Positions 358 through 17,326 of a DNA stretch of 64,000 nucleotides are shown piece by piece. Numbering within the stretch: position 1 is the stretch's first letter; every line of letters begins with the position of its first letter. A model generated the notes under the pieces. It made no database searches, had not been told where the DNA came from, and saw nothing but the letters and a program-made list of their open reading frames with translations. The translations under genes and the position numbers were made by a program. Origin of the DNA: a virus (taxonomy: Duplodnaviria > Caudoviricetes); the IMG/VR virus record IMGVR_UViG_3300028025_000089. The stretch is one strand, 5' to 3'.

Positions 358-432
358 GGTGTGGTAGCTCAGTAGGTAGAGCAAGGAGCCGGAAAACTCC
401 TGTGCCGATGGTTCGATTCCATTCCCATACCA
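358..432 (+). tRNA. tRNA-Phe-like gene with an 8-nt anticodon loop (CCGGAAAA)
   Basis: Acceptor GGTGTGG/CCATACC; D arm GCTC/GAGC; anticodon stem AGGAG/CTCCT around the 8-nt loop 389-396; T loop TTCGATT. Confidence 0.75.
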
Positions 433-438
433 CAAACA

Positions 439-1066: not shown

Positions 1067-1336
1067 ATGAAAAAGTTTGAAGATTTAGAATTTGATAAAA
1101 TATCAGATGAACCATATATGTCAGGTGTTCGTTCTCGAATGGTCTTTGAAAATGGGTATGGTGTTAGTGTTATCTCTCATACATATTCATATGGTGGAAA
1201 AGATGGTTTGTTTGAAATTGCAGTTTTAGATAAAAAAGGTGAAATAACTTACAAGACACCTGTAACAAATGATGTGATTGGTTATTTAAATCCTGAAGAA
1301 GTTACAGAAATTATGGATCATGTGCAGAAATTGTAA
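1067..1336 (+). CDS. conserved small phage protein
   Basis: 89-aa ORF with an FENGYGVSV...SYGG..GLFE.AVL pattern that I recall from phage hypothetical proteins. Confidence 0.7.
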   Translation: MKKFEDLEFDKISDEPYMSGVRSRMVFENGYGVSVISHTYSYGGKDGLFEIAVLDKKGEITYKTPVTNDVIGYLNPEEVTEIMDHVQKL

Positions 1337-1347
1337 AAAATTATTCT

Positions 1348-1355
1348 TATATTTG
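1348..1355 (+). promoter_or_regulatory. Bacteroidota-type -7 promoter element (TAtaTTTG)
   Basis: Matches TAnnTTTG immediately upstream of the ORF at 1360. Confidence 0.55.
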
Positions 1356-1359
1356 TATT

Positions 1360-1638
1360 ATGACAGAGGAACAAAGAAAGGCGATAGATAATATAATGGA
1401 TTGGTTTGACTTTGAAAAAGTTCATAAAACCATGAAAGCTCTTCGATGGGAATGGTTAAGTGCTGAAGAAAAGATTCCTTGTCAAGGTGAAATTAGAGAA
1501 GAAGCAAGACGGTTATTAACTCAAGCAATAGAAACCGAAATGAGTATTGGATCAGGAGGACTTCAAGTTACCTACATTCCAACTGAAGGATTTTTAAAAC
1601 TTGAGTTTATAGTGTCTGAATGGGACGCTTTGATATAA
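1360..1638 (+). CDS. hypothetical protein
   Basis: 92-aa ORF, normal composition, tightly packed with neighbours. Confidence 0.7.
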   Translation: MTEEQRKAIDNIMDWFDFEKVHKTMKALRWEWLSAEEKIPCQGEIREEARRLLTQAIETEMSIGSGGLQVTYIPTEGFLKLEFIVSEWDALI

Positions 1639-1643
1639 AAATA

Positions 1644-1715
1644 GGTCCATTGGTGTAGTGGCTAACATTCATCCCTGTCACGGATGAGCCGCGAGTTCGA
1701 TTCTCGCATGGACCG
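1644..1715 (+). tRNA. tRNA-Asp (GTC)
   Basis: Acceptor GGTCCAT/ATGGACC; anticodon arm CATCC-CTGTCAC-GGATG; G73. Confidence 0.95.
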
Positions 1716-1746
1716 CTAAAATTGTTTAACTAAAAAAAAAGAAAAA

Positions 1747-1968
1747 ATGAGTAAAGGACAAACTAAGGGACGTTACATTTGTAAAGTGGGTTTTTATGAT
1801 ATCTATGCAAAAGATACAATGAGAACAAGTAAAGAACGAAATTCTAAACCACAAGTTGCAAGCACGGATTACGTTATTTATCACGCAAAAAGTCTAAAAG
1901 AAAAAGGGTTTAAAACCAAAGATCTGGCGGTTGCAAGAATCAATGAATTATTAATGTCTAAAAAGTAA
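1747..1968 (+). CDS. small basic hypothetical protein
   Basis: 73-aa ORF, coupled to the next ORF. Confidence 0.65.
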   Translation: MSKGQTKGRYICKVGFYDIYAKDTMRTSKERNSKPQVASTDYVIYHAKSLKEKGFKTKDLAVARINELLMSKK

Positions 1969-1970
1969 AT

Positions 1971-2174
1971 ATGAATAAAATATTAGGTTTATTTATCGGC
2001 ACAATTGCCACAGTTATAGTTATGTTGGGTGGTTATTTTTTAACCATGTATACACAAAAAGAGATTTCTCTTGTAACAATCGGTTTGGGTATTTTAGGGT
2101 TTTTGATTGTATATCCAGCAATTGAACGTTGGGAGATTCGAATCATGAGTTTGTTAAAAAAAGATAAGAAATAG
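1971..2174 (+). CDS. small membrane protein (2 TM)
   Basis: 67 aa with two hydrophobic segments and a basic C-terminus. Confidence 0.65.
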   Translation: MNKILGLFIGTIATVIVMLGGYFLTMYTQKEISLVTIGLGILGFLIVYPAIERWEIRIMSLLKKDKK

Positions 2175-2258
2175 TTTTTGCTCTTATTTGACCATCAAAT
2201 AATAATTTATAACATTTTTTTTAATAATATTTCGTCATATAACAAACACCAATAAATC

Positions 2259-2360
2259 ATGATCACAACCATCATAACCGGCTTTTTAATGCCAGCAGTC
2301 ATACTTTCTGTAATTATCTATTCATTCATGACCGACAAGGAGAAATCAAAGTCCCAATAG
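2259..2360 (+). CDS. 33-aa single-TM peptide (not in ORF track)
   Basis: ATG 2259 to TAG 2360: MITTIITGFLMPAVILSVIIYSFMTDKEKSKSQ. Confidence 0.45.
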   Translation: MITTIITGFLMPAVILSVIIYSFMTDKEKSKSQ

Positions 2361-2424
2361 TTTTTTTCATAAAAGTTGGTAAATCCTATTTTCAATTTTT
2401 TAACTATTTATATATTAAAACAAT

Positions 2425-3963
2425 ATGAGTTGTTGTAATAGGAAATTACTGATTACCGAAGAAGAGAAGTTAAACATAATGAAATTGTATGGTCTTCTTC
2501 TTGAAGGGGAAACCGATGGAGGTGGATACGAAATTGATTTTTCGAATACATTTAAATCTGGATACCATAGTGTTAATTATATTAACAAATCTCTTTTAGC
2601 CACTGAATTAAACAATGCAAAAACTTGGTTAACAAATAAATTAAAAGAACCTGGAAATAAAGGAAAATTGGTTTACGTTGAAATTGACGCAAGTGAATCT
2701 AAAGTGCCAAATGCCGATGCGGAAAAAGGGGGTGCTATTTTACCACCTTATCAACTGTCAAATAAAAGAGCGGTATCCATCAATAATTATTTGAGTGGAA
2801 TTTTTGATGGATGGGTTACGGCAAAATTAATTCCAGAAAAACCAATTTTTTCTTTTCCTCCTCCAAAAATTGGTGGTCCTAATTGGTGTCCTAATTATAG
2901 TAAAGATCCTGAATGTGAAGGCACACCAAAAAATGATAAAAATACAGATCAAAAATTTACAGAACACCAATATGTGAGAGTTAAATTTTTATTAGATGAT
3001 GGAACTATTTCTGCAAAATGTTTGGAGGGATTATCTATAACCGTTGCATATAATCAAACCGCATCGTCTGCTTTTCCATGTAGAGGAAATCACAGATGTG
3101 ATGAAGCAGATTTTAACGTATTATTAAACAAAGTTCCAGTTGGTTCTGTAAGTTTAAATAACGCTAATGACGGAGGTAGTAGAACAGGAACTGTAACTGT
3201 TACCCCACAACAGGCAACCTCTATTGCAAAGGCATCGAAAGATAGAAGAAAGATAGACATTTATTTACAATGTAAATTTGCCAAATGCCACTCATCAACG
3301 CCTGAAATAACAATTTCAAAAGGAGGTTTTATTTTCCCTAATTTTCCAAGATGTGTCCCATCAATTACTGATAGAGATGATTTTACATTAAAACATATTT
3401 TATCAATTGATGTTTGTGGAAATGTTACTCAAGAAAATAAAGATCAAAAAGCGGTATTACCAGATGAACAATTTATTAAAAAACCTACTGATCTTAAAGA
3501 AGGTTATTTATATTATAATGAGGACACCAAACAATTTGAATTTAGTGAAACTTCTCTTTCATCACAAGGTGATCCCGAAGATCCTAACAGCTTACACTCA
3601 TGGACTGTAAGACATCCTCTATACGGTGTTAATAATGAACAAACCACAGATGCGGGTGAACATCCTGCAAAAATTTATAAAGAAGGGTGTGTTGCGACAG
3701 ACAAAGCGAATTACGGAGGTTATTGTATTTGGTCAGGACCAAAGGTTGTTTATAAAACCGTAAATAGGACGGTCTATCCACCATATGGCGAAATTTCAAA
3801 AATTGAAAAATGGATGTTAGGTAAAAATTCTGGAATAGTTATGAATTTGAATTTTGATACCTATAGTAAATATAGATTAGGTTTTAGTGGTTTAGGAAAA
3901 TCATCTTCATGGTATAAAGAAGACGGAACAGAACTAAAACCAAGATCAACATTTGGACAATAA
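2425..3963 (+). CDS. virion-associated protein with a divergent OmpA-like (peptidoglycan-binding) domain
   Basis: F.SG...VEIDASES..PN...LSNKRAVSINNYL resembles the OmpA C-terminal pattern; TATTTATA motif at 2405-2412. Confidence 0.5.
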   Translation: MSCCNRKLLITEEEKLNIMKLYGLLLEGETDGGGYEIDFSNTFKSGYHSVNYINKSLLATELNNAKTWLTNKLKEPGNKGKLVYVEIDASESKVPNADAEKGGAILPPYQLSNKRAVSINNYLSGIFDGWVTAKLIPEKPIFSFPPPKIGGPNWCPNYSKDPECEGTPKNDKNTDQKFTEHQYVRVKFLLDDGTISAKCLEGLSITVAYNQTASSAFPCRGNHRCDEADFNVLLNKVPVGSVSLNNANDGGSRTGTVTVTPQQATSIAKASKDRRKIDIYLQCKFAKCHSSTPEITISKGGFIFPNFPRCVPSITDRDDFTLKHILSIDVCGNVTQENKDQKAVLPDEQFIKKPTDLKEGYLYYNEDTKQFEFSETSLSSQGDPEDPNSLHSWTVRHPLYGVNNEQTTDAGEHPAKIYKEGCVATDKANYGGYCIWSGPKVVYKTVNRTVYPPYGEISKIEKWMLGKNSGIVMNLNFDTYSKYRLGFSGLGKSSSWYKEDGTELKPRSTFGQ

Positions 3964-6779: not shown

Positions 6780-7670
6780 ATAGATTATCCAATCAGGAAA
6801 AGTTTTGTCAGATTAATTGACGTGTAATTGAAACGAATGTTTCATCTTGGAATGATAAAGATATTGGGCAGTATATGGTCCATTAAAATAAACCATGAAA
6901 GTGGGATAAAGTGAATTATTTGTGTTAGATAGTTTGCGGCTTCTTCGGGAGCTCGAGTATACAAGCGGGATACCGTTTAACCTTTAGTATCGAGGGCAAC
7001 GCTGTAGAGAAAGTGGTTAGATGATTTGGCGATGTGGGTCGTCAAATTGAGGTGGGAACACCAATAGGAATAACTCGTAGGAATTTTGCAAAACAAAGTG
7101 TTCCAACACTTTCATTGCGAGTTCCAATATTAGAGGATACTTAAAACCGAAAGGTATGATAACAAACGGGTGGTGCCGACATTATCCTTGATGAACTCCT
7201 ACCAAGGGGTTAATCTCGAAGTAGTCTTAAAGTATGGAAATGGGGACATTTCAGAGAGTAGTTGAGTATTTCGTTGTTCAAAAGATAACGAAGCCCGTGA
7301 CGGACCACTACTTTCACAATCCACGACACAAAACTTATGGAAGTTGTTATTTTCCAAAAAATAATTATTACATTAAGGAAAAGTGTCCGTCAGGTTTGAA
7401 TGAAAGGTGACTACATAGTAATGAGCAGTTCATTGCACACAAAGATCCCAAGTCGATGTGTAATTTTTCGAAAAACCTTTAATCCCGCAAGGACGAACTG
7501 GGGAGGCATCCTCGGAAAGAGTTAAAGTAGAATGAGAGTAGTTCAGACCTCAAGGAGTGGTATACCTAAAAGACCGTCACTGAGAAATACTTCTCAAAAG
7601 GAAGTGGATAGGAGTAGAAACAATAATGACTCTAAAGGTTCTCACAAATAGGTGTAATCTCAACCTTTTA
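6780..7670 (+). ncRNA. giant structured ncRNA, probably GOLLD family (boundaries approximate)
   Basis: About 890 nt with no ORF in the track, GC-richer than the flanks. C(UUCG)G hairpin 6939-6952; GNRA hairpins 7147-7156 and 7237-7252; long-range helices 7219-7225/7307-7313 and TGACGGAC (~7298-7305)/GTCCGTCA (~7385-7392); terminal helix AAAGGTT (~7635)/AACCTTT (7662-7668); tandem promoters upstream and a terminator downstream. Confidence 0.7.
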
Positions 7671-8368: not shown

Positions 8369-8786
8369 TGGTGGACCTAGAGGGCTCCGACTCCCTCGTC
8401 CGGCTCGTCTTGTCTAAAAGACAACTACATGTTTAGATCAAGGTTTTTCATACCTTCCGAAATATTTGGTTCCTATTTTTACATTGTTACCAAAAACTGT
8501 GTCGAGTTCACTTTGTTACGGTAGCCCTCTGAACGAGACCGTTGTTTCCTTTTAGAGTGAAAACCAACTCATCTACGACTTCTGTTGCTAGGTTATCTGT
8601 CTGACCGACCCCCCGTTTCCGTATCTAATTAAGCTACAGTAACTTCAGAACCTCTTACTAATCCAAGAGTTTCCATTTTGTTTAGCACATTGCCAGTTGT
8701 GTTTTGAATCAGTTTTTAACGAGATTAATTCAGTCCCGACATGCTTCTTTTATTCAACCAACGCCCGTCAAATCCAATATAGGCCC
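8369..8786 (-). ncRNA. ssrA: tmRNA (SsrA)
   Basis: 5' GGGCCTA-TATTGGATTTGAC; 3' T arm GAGGG-AGTCGGAG-CCCTC, then TAGGTCC-A-CCA. Acceptor stem has the G3:U70 alanine determinant. Internal tag frame at 8694-8629. Confidence 0.93.
8629..8694 (-). other. tmRNA tag reading frame (A)GNVLNKMETLGLVRGSEVTVA*
   Basis: Resume codon inferred as GGC after AACT; open for 21 codons to TAA. Confidence 0.75.
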
Positions 8787-8869: not shown

Positions 8870-10006
8870 ATGAAAAAAAGACTTCTTATAGAAAATGATG
8901 TTTCAGAAATGACGGATTTTCAAAAAATCCTTCTTTTAAATAAAAGAAAGTTGTCTTCTGATGATGTTGAATTTGAAAGTGATAATTACGAAGACTTGAA
9001 ACTAAATCATGTTCAGATTAAACCTGATGGTCTATTATTTGATTTTGATGATTTAGAACAGTTTTTAAAGTTTTTTCATTATCCTACATTTGAAGAAGGA
9101 ACTGACGGTGAGTGGGATGCGACTAATTATGATCGTATGTATTATGGTCAATATGATTTTTATAGTGAGTGTCAAGATCGAGCATACGACGATTGGAGTG
9201 AAGGATATACTTTAGGATATCTTTGTAGTGAAGCAAAAATCAGATTAAGAGAATTACTTAAAATAATTGCACCTAACCTTGTTGATAATATTAAAGAAGA
9301 CGGTAGTAGAATTGATGATGAAAGTCAAATAACTTCAGTATTGGACAAATACTTTCAACATATTGGAGATGAAATGGATGATATTATATGTTCTGCTAAA
9401 TCGAATGGAACTGAAGCGGGAGTTAAAGAAGCGATTGAAAAAGAATATTGTAATACACTTAGTGAATATGGTGTTGAAAAATGGGGTAAGTGGTGTTTTG
9501 GATTATACTTTATAAGTTGGGGTAATCTGGTTCAGTTATTTGTTGAAGATGGTGAATTTGATGTAAACGCTCTTGATGTATTAATTCAAAAAATCGATAA
9601 AAAATTTAGACACGGTCTTCCTGAATATTACGAAATGGAATACTATGTTATGGACAATGAAGTATTTGAATCTGAGTCTTGTGAAAAATTGGTTAATTTA
9701 ATTGATGAGTATATAGAAAGAGCCCAAGAAGAATTTTCTTCTGAATATATTAAAATTATTAATAAACTCTCATCTTTGGATTTATTATATAGAAGAGAAA
9801 TTCCAGGTCAAAAAAATTTATTTATAAAAGTGGATTCAGTTGATCCTGAAACATTAAAGGTAAAGTATCTTATTGGGTCAGGAGGTTATTTTGGTGATCG
9901 TAAATATGGTTTGGCAACTGCTGATGAGGTAATTGCAATGGCAACTCAGCCAGGTTTATTCAACCCAACTGAGTTTAGAATCGATCCAGGTCAATTAAGA
10001 CGATAA
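8870..10006 (+). CDS. acidic hypothetical protein (late-motif gene)
   Basis: 378-aa ORF; TATTTATA at 8857-8864. Confidence 0.75.
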   Translation: MKKRLLIENDVSEMTDFQKILLLNKRKLSSDDVEFESDNYEDLKLNHVQIKPDGLLFDFDDLEQFLKFFHYPTFEEGTDGEWDATNYDRMYYGQYDFYSECQDRAYDDWSEGYTLGYLCSEAKIRLRELLKIIAPNLVDNIKEDGSRIDDESQITSVLDKYFQHIGDEMDDIICSAKSNGTEAGVKEAIEKEYCNTLSEYGVEKWGKWCFGLYFISWGNLVQLFVEDGEFDVNALDVLIQKIDKKFRHGLPEYYEMEYYVMDNEVFESESCEKLVNLIDEYIERAQEEFSSEYIKIINKLSSLDLLYRREIPGQKNLFIKVDSVDPETLKVKYLIGSGGYFGDRKYGLATADEVIAMATQPGLFNPTEFRIDPGQLRR

Positions 10007-11022
10007 CGCTCTTTTAGAATCTTGTATAATTTTAAACCATCTTCATCATCAATATAAAAGTGGTTTTCATCGTATATGTCGGCGATTATGAACCCATCTT
10101 TTTCTTCAATCACATCAATAGATGTTAGTTGGTGAACCTCATCGTAAAATGGGCTTTCATCAACATCATCAAAATTATATAAAGATTTAACAGGTTTTGG
10201 TTCATCGTATTTGAATTCGTATTTTTTCAAACCAAGATCTTTAACCATGTTTTTTCCAGCTTCGATTGCTCTTTTAACATCATCTATACATACAAATTCA
10301 TTTGCTGTGTGCATATTATAATAACCACATGACATATTGATACAAGATAGGTCAGATAGTTGTTTAATCATCATAATATCGGTATATGGGTGAGACTGAA
10401 CCAACATCTCGTTATTAAACCCTTTTGTGATTGATCGAATTGCGGTATTGAAGAACTCTCCTTCTTTATCAAATAAAGTGGTTCCCATGCAAGCCTGTGA
10501 AATTAAATGATCACCAGGTGCGTCATATTGGACGCAATAACCAACATCTTTTAAAAACTCTTTATCTACCAATTTTGATCCGTGGCAACCTGTTTCTTCT
10601 GAAACGAAAAACGCAACTTTAACTTTATCTAATTGAGAAAGAAGTTCCAAACAAATATAAATTCCACATTTGTCATCACCACCAATTCCTGTTGGGTTAT
10701 CGTCTTTATCATATGCCTTTAAACATAATACTTGATCTCTTCCAAAATCTTTTCCAAATGTAAATGGACGAATAAGATATTCTTCTTTAACAATTATTTC
10801 ATCAACCAGTTCGTGAACCGTGTCGGTGTGAGAAATAAACATTGGGTAAAATTCACCTTCATCCAACGTTCCTTTAGTTGCATATATGTTAAGGTTTCCG
10901 TCACAGATTAAAGTAACTCCTTCCATATCACCAATGGTAGAAATTAAATACTCCACCATTTTAATTTCCTCATAAGTCTTGGTTGGGACAGATAAGAGTT
11001 CTTTAAATTTATTTAGATTCAT
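9991..11022 (-). CDS. M28/M20-family zinc peptidase
   Basis: SHTDTVH, GGDDKCG, SEETG and QYD...H metal-binding motifs. Confidence 0.8.
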   Translation of the reverse strand: MNLNKFKELLSVPTKTYEEIKMVEYLISTIGDMEGVTLICDGNLNIYATKGTLDEGEFYPMFISHTDTVHELVDEIIVKEEYLIRPFTFGKDFGRDQVLCLKAYDKDDNPTGIGGDDKCGIYICLELLSQLDKVKVAFFVSEETGCHGSKLVDKEFLKDVGYCVQYDAPGDHLISQACMGTTLFDKEGEFFNTAIRSITKGFNNEMLVQSHPYTDIMMIKQLSDLSCINMSCGYYNMHTANEFVCIDDVKRAIEAGKNMVKDLGLKKYEFKYDEPKPVKSLYNFDDVDESPFYDEVHQLTSIDVIEEKDGFIIADIYDENHFYIDDEDGLKLYKILKERYRLN

Positions 11023-12141: not shown

Positions 12142-14181
12142 TTATTCTTTCTTTTTTCTTGTTCTTTTAACTTTTTCTTCTTTATTAGAAATTATAACAT
12201 CATCATTTTCGACTTTCAAAATATATTCTTTGTTTTCTTCAATTTCCATCATTAAGATTTTTTCGGAAATTAAATCTTCAATTTTATTTTGAATTGCTCT
12301 TTTGATAGGTCTTGCACCAAAAGTTTCGTCAAAACCAACTTTAGATAGATAATCAACCAAATCTTGTTCATAAGAAAAATAGTATTTTTTCTCTGAAACT
12401 CTTTTTAATAATTTGTCAATCTCTAACTTGGTAATAACGTCAATGTGTGGTTTTTCTAAAGAGTTAAAAATTACAACATCATCAATTCTATTTAAAAACT
12501 CAGGTGAGAAAAACTTTTTCATTTCTTTCTTCAATACATCTTGTTTTTCTTCTTCTTTAACAACATCACTTTTTTGAGGTTGGAATCCCATACCAGTTCC
12601 AAAGTCTTGTAATTTTTTAACTCCAATGTTGGAAGTCATAATAATCAAACAATTTTTGAAGTTAATTTTACGACCTAATGAATCTGTAATGTGGCCATCA
12701 TCTAACAACTGAAGAAGTGTTGAGAAAATGTCTTTGTGAGCTTTCTCGATCTCATCAAACAATACAACAGAATAAGGTTTGTTTTTAACTTGTTCAGTTA
12801 ATTGACCACCTTCATCATGACCAACATATCCTGGAGGTGATCCAATCAAACGAGAAATGGTATGTTTCTCTTGATATTCACTCATATCTACACGAATCAT
12901 ATTGTCTTCACTACCAAAGATTTCTTTCGCCAATTGTTTTGCCAAATACGTTTTACCAACACCCGTAGATCCCAAGAAAATAAATGAACCGATTGGTTTA
13001 TTTGGATCTTTGATTCCAATTCTATTTCTTCTAATTGCTTTTGAAATTTTATTCACCGCTTCTTCTTGACCAATAACCTTTGAATTTAAACTTTCATTTA
13101 AATTAATTAATGAATTTCTTTCGTCCAAATTAATATTGGAAATTGGAATTTTGGTCATGTTGGAAACCACCTCATAAATTAAATCTTCAGGAATACTTCT
13201 TTTACTATTCAATAAACTTTCTTCGAATTTCTTTTTTTCTAAATCCAACTTTGATAAAACATTACGTTCTCTATCTCTTAACTCGGCAGCCAACTCATAT
13301 TTTTGTTGTTTAATAACATTCATTTTTTCTTGTTTGATGGCGTTTGCTTCGTCCTTTAATTTTTCGATTTCTTCAGGTAATTTGATGTCAATTTGCATTC
13401 TTGATCCAACCTCATCCAAAATATCAAATGCTTTATCAGGAAACTCACGATCTGTAATATATCGATCAGCCAACTCAACAAATGTCCAAAGAGTTTTATC
13501 ATCATAAGTCACTTTGTGGTGATCTTCATATTTTGATTTACTCATCTTTAAAATTTCAAATGTTTCTTCTTTTGAAGATGGATCAACAATAACCTTTTGA
13601 AATCTTCGATCTAACGCACCGTCTTTTTCAAAGTGTTTTCTATATTCATCCAAAGTTGTTGCTCCAACACATTGAATATCTCCTCTTGATAAAGCTGGTT
13701 TTAAAATGTTTGACGCATCTAAAGAACCTGAACTATTTCCTGCACCAACCATAGTGTGAATTTCATCAATAAATAAAATGATGTTTGGGGTTGCTTGTAA
13801 CTCTTCGATAATAACTTTCATTCGTTCTTCGAATTGACCTCTATATTTTGTTCCTGCGACTAATGAATTTAAATCTAAAGATACAATTCTTTTATCCATT
13901 AAATTTTTTGGACATTCACCGTTGTGAATCATCATTGCAAGACCCTCCACAATTGCTGTCTTTCCTGCACCTGGTTCACCAATAATAATTGGGTTATTTT
14001 TCTTTCTTCGAGATAAAATCTGAGCGATTCTAAAAATTTCTTTTTGTCTTCCAATTACAGGATCTAATTTCCCGTCTTGTGCTAACTTATTTAAGTCTTT
14101 ACTAAAATTATCTAATACAGGAGTCCCGCTATCAGATTTCTTTTTTGATTTGTCATTTCCTTCGTCCATAAATTCTAACAT
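12142..14181 (-). CDS. clpC: ClpC-type AAA+ unfoldase lacking the N-terminal Clp domain
   Basis: LDPVIGR; Walker A GEPGAGKT and GSTGVGKT; Walker B FIDEIH and FDEIEK; UVR-like M domain (AIKQEKM..IKQQKYELAAELRD); MGF ClpP-docking loop. Confidence 0.92.
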   Translation of the reverse strand: MLEFMDEGNDKSKKKSDSGTPVLDNFSKDLNKLAQDGKLDPVIGRQKEIFRIAQILSRRKKNNPIIIGEPGAGKTAIVEGLAMMIHNGECPKNLMDKRIVSLDLNSLVAGTKYRGQFEERMKVIIEELQATPNIILFIDEIHTMVGAGNSSGSLDASNILKPALSRGDIQCVGATTLDEYRKHFEKDGALDRRFQKVIVDPSSKEETFEILKMSKSKYEDHHKVTYDDKTLWTFVELADRYITDREFPDKAFDILDEVGSRMQIDIKLPEEIEKLKDEANAIKQEKMNVIKQQKYELAAELRDRERNVLSKLDLEKKKFEESLLNSKRSIPEDLIYEVVSNMTKIPISNINLDERNSLINLNESLNSKVIGQEEAVNKISKAIRRNRIGIKDPNKPIGSFIFLGSTGVGKTYLAKQLAKEIFGSEDNMIRVDMSEYQEKHTISRLIGSPPGYVGHDEGGQLTEQVKNKPYSVVLFDEIEKAHKDIFSTLLQLLDDGHITDSLGRKINFKNCLIIMTSNIGVKKLQDFGTGMGFQPQKSDVVKEEEKQDVLKKEMKKFFSPEFLNRIDDVVIFNSLEKPHIDVITKLEIDKLLKRVSEKKYYFSYEQDLVDYLSKVGFDETFGARPIKRAIQNKIEDLISEKILMMEIEENKEYILKVENDDVIISNKEEKVKRTRKKKE

Positions 14182-14237
14182 AACTTTTTTTGATAAATAA
14201 TAATATTAATAAAATAAAAAGTCCAATATTGTCTTTA

Positions 14238-14284
14238 TGTCAGTTTGATTTATAAAAAATTTGTGTTTTACTGACAATTTGTCA
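14238..14284. promoter_or_regulatory. inverted-repeat operator-like sites in the clpC divergent intergenic region
   Basis: TGTCAGT (14238-14244) / ACTGACA (14270-14276), plus the palindrome TGACAA-T-TTGTCA (14272-14284). Confidence 0.45.
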
Positions 14285-14350
14285 TATAATATTAATTGGT
14301 ATAATTTTTCATATAAGAAAAACCAAAATAAACCTATAAAATAATAAAAA

Positions 14351-14713
14351 ATGTTTAATTGGAACGAATTTGATAAATTATTTAATGAATTTTTTTCTTC
14401 ATCATTTGATGATAAAAACTGGACTAAAAATACTTATAGGTCACCAGATGGTTTGTATTCTATGTCTTATATGACAAGAAATTTTAATAACTCAAATCCG
14501 TCAGATGAATTATATGTATTGAAAGAAAAATTAAACTTGGCAATTAAAGAAGAAAATTTTGAGGAAGCTGTAAATTTAAGAGATGAAATTAAAAAGTTAG
14601 AAAAGAACAAAGAAGAGTTATCAAAGTTAAAAATTAAGTTGGACGAATGTATTCGAAACCAAGACTTTGAAAAGGCGATAGAATATCGAGACAAAATAAA
14701 ATCTCTTAAATAA
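14351..14713 (+). CDS. double UVR-domain protein (McsA/MecA-like adaptor candidate)
   Basis: Two UVR motifs, LKEKLNLAIKEENFEEAVNLRDEIK and LKIKLDECIRNQDFEKAIEYRDKIK; aromatic N-terminus FDKLFNEFF. Confidence 0.75.
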   Translation: MFNWNEFDKLFNEFFSSSFDDKNWTKNTYRSPDGLYSMSYMTRNFNNSNPSDELYVLKEKLNLAIKEENFEEAVNLRDEIKKLEKNKEELSKLKIKLDECIRNQDFEKAIEYRDKIKSLK

Positions 14714-14714
14714 C

Positions 14715-14744
14715 AAAATCCACCTTTATGGTGGATTTTTTTTT
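14715..14744 (+). terminator. intrinsic terminator
   Basis: AAAATCCACC-tttat-GGTGGATTTT plus a T run. Confidence 0.8.
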
Positions 14745-14774: not shown

Positions 14775-15017
14775 ATGGCAATAACAAGTGAAATAATTAG
14801 CGGAACTACAATTTTAAACGAAGTTCAATCATCAAATATTGTGAGAACACAATACGATACATTAACCAAAAAAATGATCGCAGAGTTTAAGAATGGGGTA
14901 AAATATGAATATAGTGATGTCCCACATCAAATTTACACTCAATTTAGAATGGCGGAATCACAAGGGAATTTTTTCAACAAAAACATTTCTAAAGCCCACA
15001 CATATAAGAAACTATAA
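14775..15017 (+). CDS. KTSC-domain protein
   Basis: SSNI...YD...EFKNGVKYEYSDVP..Y..F..AES.G.FFNKNI pattern. Confidence 0.85.
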   Translation: MAITSEIISGTTILNEVQSSNIVRTQYDTLTKKMIAEFKNGVKYEYSDVPHQIYTQFRMAESQGNFFNKNISKAHTYKKL

Positions 15018-15036: not shown

Positions 15037-15801
15037 ATGGATACTTCAGATATTTTAAAAAGTTTCGAATCTCAAGATGAACTAAACCCAAAGATTTGGT
15101 ATCTACCAAATGAAAAATACATGGGTGATCCTGAAGGTCAAAAAATGAAAATGAGACCTGAAGTTAGAGAAAAACTTTTGGAAACAGCAAATATCTTCAT
15201 TGACTTTTTAGGTGTTGACGTAATAGTCACAGATATTATTATGATCGGTTCTTTAGTTAATTATAACTGGTCAAAATTTTCTGATATTGATTTACACATC
15301 GTGGTTAACTTTAATCAATTCCCTGAAAATAGTAGGGATTTATACCTTGAATTTTTTGATTTGAAAAAAGTAATCTTTAATCAAAGACACAATATTAAAA
15401 TGTTTGGGTATGATGTTGAATGTTTTGTCCAAAGAGAAGACGAGACAACTTTTAGTAGTGGTATTTATTCTATTCTTTATGATATGTGGATGAATGAACC
15501 TAAAAAAACAAGTAAAGAAACTCTTGATAAAGAACTAATAAAAGAAAGGGCTAAACAATGGATGAGAATTATTGATGGTGTTGTTGATAACATCGAAGAT
15601 GAGGATCCTGAAGAAATTAAAAGTATTGTAAAAAAATACAAAGAAAAATTAAAAAACTTCAGAAACTGTGGTTTAGAGAAAGGTGGTGAAATGTCGATAG
15701 AAAATTTGGTATTCAAATTACTAAGAAGAAACGGATATGTTGAAAAATTGTATGAATTACCGACCGAAATTATCGATAAAAAACTATCCATGAAACAATA
15801 A
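15037..15801 (+). CDS. Pol-beta-superfamily nucleotidyltransferase
   Basis: GSLVNYNWSKFSDIDLHI (GS...DxD) plus a downstream YDVE acidic residue. Confidence 0.75.
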   Translation: MDTSDILKSFESQDELNPKIWYLPNEKYMGDPEGQKMKMRPEVREKLLETANIFIDFLGVDVIVTDIIMIGSLVNYNWSKFSDIDLHIVVNFNQFPENSRDLYLEFFDLKKVIFNQRHNIKMFGYDVECFVQREDETTFSSGIYSILYDMWMNEPKKTSKETLDKELIKERAKQWMRIIDGVVDNIEDEDPEEIKSIVKKYKEKLKNFRNCGLEKGGEMSIENLVFKLLRRNGYVEKLYELPTEIIDKKLSMKQ

Positions 15802-15877: not shown

Positions 15878-17326
15878 ATGGCAGGATTTAGACCTATCGG
15901 AAGTGAGAAACTTCAAGGAATGGATAAAATTAGACGAATAATGGAAATTGCTCGTTATAATGAAAATATTCCACAAAACGTTAATGAAACACAATCAAGC
16001 GAATATAAAATTGGTTTGGCCGATGGTAATACCTATGAAATCGTTAAAGAAAGACAAGGTTATATTGTTAAAAAAACACTTAACGAATCTGAAACGGAGT
16101 ATATCGAGCCGATGAAACAAAGAAAATATTATTCTTCATATTCTCAGGCATTAAAAAGATTGAATTTGATGACAAAAGAAATCAACACTCTTTTTGAAAA
16201 TGAGGAAGGAACTCCACTTTTAGGGGAGCAAAAAAAAAAGTTCATACTAAAAAGTAAGAAACCTAAAACTGAAGAACCTGCGGCGGCAACACCTGAACCG
16301 GCACCAGCACCCGCACCTGAACCAGCACCCGCACCTGAACCAGCACCCGCAGAAGCACCTATGCCTGATATGGGTGAAACACCGGCTCCTGATATGGGAG
16401 GTGCTCCTATAGAAGAACCACCAATGCCAGAAATGGGTGGTGGTGCTATGGAAGAACCACCAATGCCGGATATGGGGGGTGAAGAAGAAATGCCACCAAT
16501 GCCAGAAATGGGATCTGAAGAGGAAGAAGTTGACATTGATGTAGAAAAAAAACCAAAAGAAAAGAAAGTTTCGGATTTAAAAAGAATTCAAATTCTTACT
16601 GGAAAATTAGCTCAAAAAATTAGATCTTACGAAGAAGAAAAAGAATTAGATCCAAAAGATATTAAATACATTATTAACTCTATTTTATCGGCAATTGATG
16701 TTGATGTTTTAGATGAAGATGATATCGAACAAATTATCAATAAATTAGAAGGTGTTGAAGACGAAGAAGGTGGTAGTGAAGAAGAGGAAGTGTCTTTTGA
16801 AGAAAAATCTGACGAAGATGAAGTTGCTCCTGAACCACCACAAGAACCTGAAATGGCCGAAGGATATGATGATTTTAGCACCGCATTCAAAGACTATATG
16901 GGAGGTGCTTTGGCATCAGGTATGTCAAAAAAATTAAGACATGAAGAAGAAGATTTTGATATGGATGATGAATACCATAGAGAAAGAAGAAAAGGTAGAA
17001 AACACTATCCTAATGTTGATAGATTTGAACATGGAACTTTTAGTGAATCGGCGGTAGATAGAGTATTATCAAAATATTTTATAAACGAAGAAACTCAAAT
17101 TAACAGATACGAAGAATCTAAAACAAAAAAAACCAACTTAAATTACAATCAAAATAAACAAAATGTTATTAGATTGTCTGAATCATCAAATCAATTGGAT
17201 GTGGCTTTAGAATATATTAAAGAAAACCCAAGAACAAAATTAATGGGTTTATCAACAAGAGGAAATTTAATTTTTAAAGAAGGTATTAACGAAACTAAAA
17301 TTACTAAAAGTGGTGAGATCATATGA
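15878..17326 (+). CDS. Pro/Glu-rich low-complexity head-associated protein
   Basis: 482 aa; PEPAPA and PPMPEMG repeats; lies just upstream of the head module. Confidence 0.7.
   Translation: MAGFRPIGSEKLQGMDKIRRIMEIARYNENIPQNVNETQSSEYKIGLADGNTYEIVKERQGYIVKKTLNESETEYIEPMKQRKYYSSYSQALKRLNLMTKEINTLFENEEGTPLLGEQKKKFILKSKKPKTEEPAAATPEPAPAPAPEPAPAPEPAPAEAPMPDMGETPAPDMGGAPIEEPPMPEMGGGAMEEPPMPDMGGEEEMPPMPEMGSEEEEVDIDVEKKPKEKKVSDLKRIQILTGKLAQKIRSYEEEKELDPKDIKYIINSILSAIDVDVLDEDDIEQIINKLEGVEDEEGGSEEEEVSFEEKSDEDEVAPEPPQEPEMAEGYDDFSTAFKDYMGGALASGMSKKLRHEEEDFDMDDEYHRERRKGRKHYPNVDRFEHGTFSESAVDRVLSKYFINEETQINRYEESKTKKTNLNYNQNKQNVIRLSESSNQLDVALEYIKENPRTKLMGLSTRGNLIFKEGINETKITKSGEII
16292..16351 (+). repeat. 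in-frame 18-bp tandem repeat (PEPAPA)
   Basis: CCTGAACCAGCACCCGCA-type units, about 3 copies. Confidence 0.85.

Follow-up and report, generated by a model that had tools for sequence, protein, structure and literature searches.

The N-terminal domain (N-domain) of the Hsp100 ATPase ClpC receives adaptors and phospho-arginine and is the target of antibacterial peptides, and control of ClpC is currently explained by an interplay between this domain and the middle domain (M-domain). Here we describe a ClpC from which the N-domain is missing, encoded in a 64,000-nucleotide stretch (the window) of the tailed-phage record IMGVR_UViG_3300028025_000089. Its gene (positions 12142–14181, minus strand) lies head-to-head with a gene (14351–14713, plus strand) for a 120-residue, phage-specific protein with two UVR motifs, a candidate ClpC co-factor. 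In IMG/VR, relatives of this ClpC are encoded at 598 loci or more, a large phage clade that dropped the N-domain and kept the rest; unless stated otherwise, the counts below are from the best 80 of these (66–93% identity). Many of the phages with a headless ClpC pair it with a small protein made of M-domain-like hairpins. We see about an even chance that the two form a phage-borne Clp proteostasis module, in which a co-factor derived from a small heat-shock protein (sHSP) docks on the M-domains of the headless ClpC and feeds clients to ClpP.

In Staphylococcus aureus ClpC, Phe436 at the tip of the M-domain is involved both in head-to-head contacts between M-domains and in MecA binding (PMC5699869). 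The N-domain stabilises the resting state. An engineered protein without it (ΔN-ClpC) forms planar hexamers that are paired via their M-domains, with ClpP bound, and is proteolytically inactive; when the F436A mutation is added, activity is high, including degradation of SsrA-tagged green fluorescent protein (GFP) without an adaptor (PMC12583610). By analogy with ΔN-ClpC, a headless phage ClpC with an intact aromatic tip should be locked by contacts between M-domains, and a UVR protein with two copies of the tip motif would be the obvious candidate to compete for them.

In a phmmer comparison with solved structures, residues 10–651 of the 679-residue phage protein align in one stretch with residues 150–790 of S. 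aureus ClpC (E = 3e-214), its best match, at an identity of around 50%. As the alignment only opens at residue 150, merely some 20 residues precede the first AAA module, in agreement with an initial annotation that was made from the letters of the window alone. The PHROG profile for Clp ATPases (4871, 764 positions) is matched from position 161 on only. Pfam identifies AAA, AAA_lid_9, AAA_2 and ClpB_D2-small domains in the protein and no Clp_N (PF02861), which was not found either in five related phage records searched, one of them 93% complete. The gap to the divergent gene is 169 bp, leaving no room for a separate N-domain. No MecA-, McsB- or ClpS-type partner was identified for the phage ClpC, and McsB (PF00217) is absent from the relatives searched, as is a separate N-domain gene. 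The Walker A motifs are GEPGAGKT and GSTGVGKT, the Walker B-region motifs FIDEIH and LFDEIEKAH and the pore loops KYRG and GYVG, and arginine fingers are present.

The M-domain is of the short ClpC type (residues 262–335; 13177–13398, minus strand), as defined by the S. aureus alignment and by UVR matches in relatives, and carries the UVR-like tip motif KYELAAELRDRE. At the tip, Tyr295 (13297–13299) aligns opposite Phe436 of S. aureus ClpC, and the residue is aromatic in all 80 relatives (tyrosine in 76, phenylalanine in four). The UVR motif of the M-domain scores 19 bits in a 99%-identical relative, where the Pfam cut-off is 21.5, and 21–29 bits in other relatives. The ClpP-docking loop contains Met-Gly-Phe at residues 531–533 (12583–12591, minus strand), within DFGTGMGF, and in the alignment falls on the AGF loop of S. 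aureus ClpC. The pattern G[TSA]G[IVM]GF is shared by at least 75 of the 80 relatives, including the clade without ClpP. Both the UVR-like M-domain and the MGF loop had been recognised in the initial annotation, and both stand.

Stand-alone disaggregases of the ClpL and ClpB type have no ClpP-docking loop. A ClpL- or ClpB-type identity of the phage ATPase is contradicted by the conserved loop, by the far poorer match to the ClpL structure 6lsy (E = 8e-144, versus 3e-214 for ClpC) and by the match to ClpB, which splits into two stretches at the M-domain. By sequence, the phage ATPase is thus a ClpC-type double-ring unfoldase without N-domain that has retained the M-domain and the ClpP-docking loop.

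The ClpC open reading frames (ORFs) of the 80 phage relatives are all 650–719 residues long. Among cellular homologues, identity does not exceed 57% even in the closest; of the approximately 70 with a readable frame, nearly all have 808–900 residues, a length implying that the cellular relatives kept the N-domain. On the tree, the phage ClpCs form one clade (support 100), apart from the cellular ones. In two loci (L278 and L279, around 1269–3485), clpC has an apparent insertion just after the first Walker A motif, ending in an intein-like block (VHNTFDLEVLDNE).

The protein encoded by the divergent gene starts with MFNWNEFDKLFNEFF and contains a single cysteine. Pfam finds two UVR stretches in it (PF02151, 65.9 bits in total), bearing out the two motifs and the aromatic N-terminus annotated initially, and nothing else above cut-off, in particular no HSP20, MecA, ClpS or YccV domain; it has no PHROG family. 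The AlphaFold2 (AF2) model has a mean predicted local distance difference test score (pLDDT) of 74, rising to 81–86 in the hairpins, with helices at residues 4–17, 50–66, 70–102 and 106–119 and strands at 24–30 and 37–43. Residues 1–45 (14351–14485, plus strand), the sHSP-like part according to AF2, hhalign and tblastn, comprise an aromatic helix (FDKLFNEFF) followed by a beta-hairpin on an invariant Asp-Gly. Two tandem UVR helical hairpins follow at residues 52–86 (approximately) and 87–120 (14504–14710, plus strand), defined by Pfam, the family alignment, AF2 and Foldseek. Phe70, Glu71, Ala73, Arg77 and Asp78 are invariant, and Phe106, Glu107, Ala109, Arg113 and Asp114 conserved. The family alignment has the aromatic N-terminal helix (MFNWNEFDKxFxExF), the Asp-Gly hairpin and two F-E-x-A-V/I-x-L/Y-R-D hairpins as its conserved parts. 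The family comprises 202 clusters at 50% identity (E <= 1e-10) and, judging by the ESM Atlas, appears to be confined to viruses.

UVR domains are docking modules, as between UvrB and UvrC. The initial annotation had pointed to the role of UVR and M-domain contacts in adaptor control of ClpC, and the model agrees with it, the UVR hairpin resembling the tip of the ClpC M-domain. In a Foldseek comparison, one hairpin fits onto the M-domain piece 9goq_g of ClpC, from a MecA–ClpC structure, with an rmsd of 0.6 Å over 44 columns, 36% identity and a probability of 0.99; a further match is to the M-domain of ClpC in its resting state (9qqr). Using the whole UVR model, Foldseek gave no match at E <= 0.001; only the local M-domain match is convincing. 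The motif F/Y-E-x-A-A/V-x-L-R-D is common to the UVR protein and the ClpC M-domain. The hairpins are not a duplicate of the phage's own M-domain: the canonical UVR profile scores 66 bits on them versus 19–29 bits on the M-domain, on which the family profile scores 13–15 bits. Directly 3' of the UVR gene, a terminator-like hairpin with a T-run (14715–14739, plus strand) makes it a single-gene unit.

A resemblance of the N-terminus to sHSPs had also been remarked upon in the initial annotation, and sister phages do carry a genuine sHSP in exactly the slot of the UVR gene. These phage sHSPs start with MIYGxxxFNDxFxxFFN, followed further on by TKDGAYLFFE, which parallels the aromatic helix and the Asp-Gly hairpin of the UVR protein. 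With hhalign, UVR residues 1–39 match residues 1–51 of the slot sHSPs with an E-value of 8e-5 and a probability of 60%; with larger alignments the E-value is 8e-4 and the score 26.8, against 12–13 for reversed controls, at a probability of merely 24%. When the whole window was searched by tblastn with the phage sHSP, the sole match, a weak one, was on the N-terminal part of the UVR gene. The alignments are suggestive, not decisive, of a UVR protein that consists of an sHSP N-terminal arm in which the alpha-crystallin domain has been replaced by two UVR hairpins.

A first scan of IMG/VR with the UVR protein gave 27 loci, 24 of them with upstream sequence, and in all 24 clpC is head-to-head with the UVR gene. 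A profile scan gave 80 more UVR loci, some on contigs of the first scan, with UVR identities of 53–98%; the same pairing is seen in all 76 that have upstream room, with a gap of 154–242 bp in 74 of them. Given that it recurs in 76 out of 76 loci, the pairing is not due to chance. It extends to a second headless ClpC subtype, 58–62% identical to the ClpC of the window. In loci L207 and L208, the UVR gene is 92% identical to that of the window and the adjoining ClpC, of the second subtype, just 62%; this mosaicism points to recombination at the intergenic region, with the genes reshuffled and the arrangement kept. Co-occurrence across phages, proposed as a check in the initial annotation, therefore holds in one direction only: every UVR gene with upstream sequence is beside clpC, but just 31 of the 80 clpC loci have a UVR gene.

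The remaining loci reveal the position upstream of clpC as a swappable slot. Next to the 31 loci with a UVR gene, 19 have a genuine sHSP (HSP20, 47–57 bits) and none has both, for which the naive probability is 1.6e-5. DnaK occupies the slot in five loci (HSP70, 861 bits) and lies beside the UVR gene in one more. The slot is empty in about 15 loci, where a KTSC gene abuts clpC, and in about nine it holds an unrelated family of approximately 95–117 residues with the motif FQREGW(S/T)..DL..PPYYP and no Pfam match (for example L046:4635–4922 and L074:4554–4907, both on the minus strand, L079 and L084). The ClpC tree forces at least ten state changes for UVR and at least six for sHSP. Even sister loci differ, L086 (UVR) from L090 (sHSP) and L068 (UVR) from L066 and L069 (both sHSP), and the closest ClpC relatives of the window are divided into five with UVR and five with DnaK. 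In the window, the KTSC-domain gene (14775–15017, plus strand) and a nucleotidyltransferase-like gene (15037–15801, plus strand; PHROG 36119) come after the slot, as they do in 74–76 of the 80 loci, and form the constant right-hand border of this variable position. Beyond them, at 15878–17326 (plus strand), is a gene for a 482-residue protein without family match, with a long low-complexity centre rich in Pro, Ala, Glu and Met (PAPAPEP and PPMPEMGG repeats), kept beside the block in 71 of the 80 loci.

The exclusivity of UVR and sHSP extends to whole genomes. In a genome-wide screen of six near-complete genomes of UVR or sHSP type (93–100% complete), G006 and G007 (both 100% complete) have a single HSP20 gene, located next to clpC, and lack a small UVR protein; in G002, G008, G011 and G012 (93–100% complete) it is the UVR gene that lies next to clpC, and HSP20 is missing. 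No UVR or sHSP gene was found elsewhere in the empty-slot phages, of which the records are merely 8–34% complete. The present analysis contributes a two-way test of linkage, the finding that UVR and sHSP exclude each other at a swappable slot, the placing of ClpP on the tree and the mimicry of the M-domain.

The initial annotation was also right in stating that the window lacks clpP: with six phage ClpP sequences as queries, the best tblastn match there was no better than E = 0.67. Seven related phage records do encode canonical ClpP (172–196 bits), whose Ser, His and Asp lie in the expected motifs, and by their ClpC these records belong to basal clades of the tree. Such clpP genes are seen in related jumbo phages, for example in L198 (G006:147522–148049), L199 and L280–L283, and are 25–30 kb from clpC where both could be placed. 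From these sequences, a link between ClpC and ClpP in the phage is plausible.

On the 3' side of clpC is a gene for an M42/M20-like metallopeptidase (9991–11022, minus strand; Pfam M42 26.6 bits and M20 25.2 bits, PHROG 4191 'peptidase' E = 3e-36), which is beside clpC in 56 of the 56 loci with enough sequence and in 77 of the 80 overall; it may trim peptides released by ClpP. A phage transfer-messenger RNA (tmRNA) gene (8369–8786, minus strand; Rfam RF00023, 78.5 bits) is 3.4 kb from clpC in the window, and the distance is 2–6 kb in six near-complete relatives. It was not called by ARAGORN; alignment to the Rfam consensus gives the tag GNVLNKMETLGLVRGSEVTVA, ending in -TVA and not in -LAA, with a tentative resume codon. 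A GOLLD RNA (7254–7666, plus strand, 313 bits) is located with the tmRNA just past the peptidase. Judging by these sequences, tmRNA-tagged products, named as clients in the initial annotation, are plausible.

From this arrangement we infer the physical steps of binding, activation, use of ClpP and client choice as follows. The sHSP-like arm would hold non-native proteins, while the UVR hairpins would dock head-to-head on the tips of the ClpC M-domains. In doing so, they would compete with the contacts between M-domains that keep the headless ClpC in inactive ring dimers; the motor would switch on and clients would enter the pore. ClpP would then cut them, that of the host in the case of the window phage and their own in the basal relatives, and the adjoining M42-like peptidase may trim the resulting peptides. 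With sHSP and DnaK as alternative occupants of the slot, the clients would be misfolded or aggregating proteins in general. Most likely, then, the module of the window is a phage-run kit for protein quality control and breakdown, not a proven anti-defence weapon.

Several observations weigh against this mechanism. Within 5 kb of clpC, neither UVR nor sHSP is encoded in at least 20 of the 80 headless loci, the slot being taken by DnaK or empty, so the co-factor is not obligatory; about nine more have only the unrelated family. The small protein is therefore not the required replacement of the N-domain that the initial annotation took it for. The M-domains contain no partner-specific residues across UVR, sHSP, DnaK and empty-slot lineages, and no covariation signal. 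True sHSPs lack a UVR motif, and if they are functionally equivalent to the UVR protein, docking on the M-domain is not the shared feature. The N-terminal likeness between the UVR protein and sHSPs is weak (hhalign probabilities of 24–60%). No phage ClpP is present in five records of the clade of the window that are at least 93% complete (G002, G007 and G011–G013), so the window phage would have to use host ClpP, though the loop is kept. The region is syntenic across the phage group, so the adjacencies of peptidase and tmRNA count as one inherited layout and not as many independent events; they may reflect this layout and not a functional cluster.

The intergenic region of 169 bp contains a palindrome, TGACAATTTGTCA (14272–14284), the single match in the window where 0.07 are expected. 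An extended −10 element (TGGTATAAT) is next to it on the UVR side. Exact TGACA-N3-TGTCA is found in 28 of 32 UVR-type and 10 of 19 sHSP-type intergenic regions, in none of five DnaK-type and nine REGW-type regions, and in two of 15 empty slots. It is often doubled, around 31 bp apart (L053, L055, L057, L066 and others), and by its sequence may serve as an operator or consist of two TTGTCA −35 boxes placed back to back. Of six near-complete genomes searched, five contain one to six copies per approximately 300 kb, one always at the clpC slot; G008 has none. The palindrome is not the mark of a chaperone regulon, as the other copies in complete genomes are not at chaperone genes: they are inside a conserved 149-residue ORF of the replication region or at the start of an ORF of around 100 residues of unknown function.

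A stricter form of the mechanism, which we regard as possible on balance without favouring it, makes the UVR protein a new class of Clp co-factor that acts through the M-domain only. It would be a decoy of the tip that opens ring dimers locked by their M-domains, a natural counterpart of the F436A mutation, with the sHSP-derived arm delivering clients. If so, the replacement of sHSP by UVR and the exchange of the cassette would show that phages couple holdases directly to ClpC–ClpP, with a tmRNA and an aminopeptidase of their own.

Among the alternatives, the one that survives best, although we consider it unlikely, is that the UVR protein is a stand-alone holdase which stands in for the sHSP without ever contacting ClpC; the two genes would share no more than promoter region and timing. 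The mutual exclusion of UVR and true sHSP at the slot, with a regulatory palindrome common to both, would fit this, as would the sHSP-like arm and the absence of M-domain covariation. On the other hand, the protein has no alpha-crystallin domain (no HSP20 match), its UVR hairpins are protein–protein docking modules, and the sole other UVR motif in most of the genomes is that of the ClpC M-domain. Moreover, all 76 UVR genes examined are head-to-head with clpC, also in loci with an exchanged ClpC subtype.

Somewhat less probable still is the interpretation offered in the initial annotation, in which the UVR protein is a specificity adaptor that replaces the N-domain and, via the phage ClpC, steers host ClpP to chosen targets such as defence proteins or tmRNA-tagged products. 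The linkage of UVR and clpC, the conserved ClpP loop and the nearby tmRNA gene are in line with it, and ΔN-ClpC with broken M-domain contacts degrades SsrA-tagged GFP adaptor-free (PMC12583610). A precedent is Gp53 of phage SPO1, a phage protein that modulates the ClpC–ClpP protease (PMC6873191); it differs in that it acts on host ClpC, whereas here the phage brings its own, and no sequence relation was found. However, the slot is filled by general chaperones or empty in close relatives, which fits broad clients better, and SsrA-type tags are read by the pore, for which no adaptor is needed. Nothing was found that links the ClpC–UVR pair to defence systems; the sHSP and DnaK occupants point to misfolded or aggregating proteins generally. 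The earlier interpretation is thus partly supported: an adaptor-like partner and a link to ClpP are plausible, and specific anti-defence targeting is unsupported.

We give a similarly low probability to the phage ClpC working independently of ClpP, as a ClpL- or ClpB-like disaggregase or as an assembly chaperone for the very large virion, helped by sHSP, DnaK or the UVR protein. The partners are indeed those of classical sHSP–Hsp70–Hsp100 disaggregation, the clade of the window lacks ClpP, and ring dimers of the ClpL type likewise form via M-domain contacts (PMC12583610, PMC11006417). Against this, the [IVM]GF loop, a defining feature of ClpP-coupled Hsp100s, persists even in the clade without ClpP, the seven basal-clade records encode ClpP, and the peptidase is a constant neighbour. 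Least probable of all is a UVR protein that acts as a brake, capping or bridging M-domains to keep an otherwise poorly controlled headless ClpC quiet until it is needed, or that sets timing as a ClpC substrate. With its two hairpins, each protein could cross-link M-domains; S. aureus ClpC has a weaker resting state once the N-domain is lost, deregulated ClpC is toxic (PMC12583610, PMC5699869) and MecA itself is degraded by ClpCP (PMC5699869). Yet one would not expect sHSP or DnaK to take the place of a pure inhibitor, and many relatives have no UVR protein.

The tailed-phage character of the window is evident from the large terminase, portal and major head protein genes within 18.6–29.1 kb. 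Six tRNA genes are present at 0.3–1.7 kb, and the G+C content is about 30%. At 358–433 (plus strand), ARAGORN predicts a tRNA whose four-base anticodon (ggaa) is unassignable, a weak Rfam tRNA match (36 bits). The nearest relative record is a 60-kb fragment, estimated to be 20% of a genome; near-complete relatives are 272–321 kb long, so the window phage is a jumbo phage of around 300 kb. Among jumbo phages, ClpA, ClpX, ClpP and ClpS have been noted (PMC7824862). The 'moraphages', a freshwater lineage of 200–307 kb with predicted Bacteroidota hosts described in 2025, have 26 core genes including a 'ClpA'-annotated ATPase and a peptidase, and some members have DnaK, DnaJ or HSP20 (PMC12619734). 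They resemble the window phage in being large freshwater phages with a core Clp ATPase and a core peptidase, as around clpC in the window, and its freshwater jumbo lineage is probably the same or a neighbouring one. A keyword search of PMC12619734 and PMC7824862 gave no mention of N-domain loss, a UVR protein, a swappable slot or UVR/sHSP exclusivity.

If the UVR protein does bind the M-domain, the pair would be a compact natural switch for ClpC–ClpP that bypasses the N-domain, useful both to understand this drug-target protease and to manipulate it. The replacement of sHSP, DnaK and UVR by one another at one slot is a clean natural experiment on the helpers that an Hsp100 motor can use. It suggests that, while they infect, jumbo phages maintain a system of protein quality control and recycling of their own.

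McsA, the activator of the arginine kinase McsB, is encoded in the ctsR-mcsA-mcsB-clpC operon. Like the UVR protein, it is small, has a UVR-like C-terminal motif and is encoded beside clpC; its C-terminus is the top NCBIfam match of the UVR protein, with 44 bits where the cut-off is 210, over the C-terminal 40 or so positions only. In contrast to McsA, the UVR protein lacks the zinc-finger cysteines at the N-terminus and has two UVR motifs instead of one; the phage relatives have no McsB, and the phage ClpC has no N-domain to read phospho-arginine. In plastids, CLPF, EXE1/2 and UVR2-4 are UVR-domain proteins associated with a ClpC whose M-domain has a UVR motif, and plant CLPC1 traps several such proteins (PMC8889267); outside the UVR domain they are unrelated (YccV, DUF151), CLPC1 comes with an N-domain, and the system is that of a plant and not of a phage. 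With sHSPs, which work with Hsp70 and Hsp100 in disaggregation, the UVR protein shares a similar N-terminal arm and the slot beside clpC, where sister phages have genuine HSP20 or DnaK, but it has neither an alpha-crystallin domain nor a C-terminal IxI-like tail, and the partner ATPase is of the ClpC type with a ClpP loop, not ClpB. The phage ATPase itself is like the ClpC of Firmicutes (S. aureus and Bacillus subtilis; PDB 6em8 and 3j3s) in its two AAA+ rings, short coiled-coil M-domain, aromatic tip and ClpP loop, and differs from it in the N-domain, which is naturally missing in the whole phage clade. It is in this respect the likeness of the engineered ΔN-ClpC: the phage protein begins where the laboratory construct begins.

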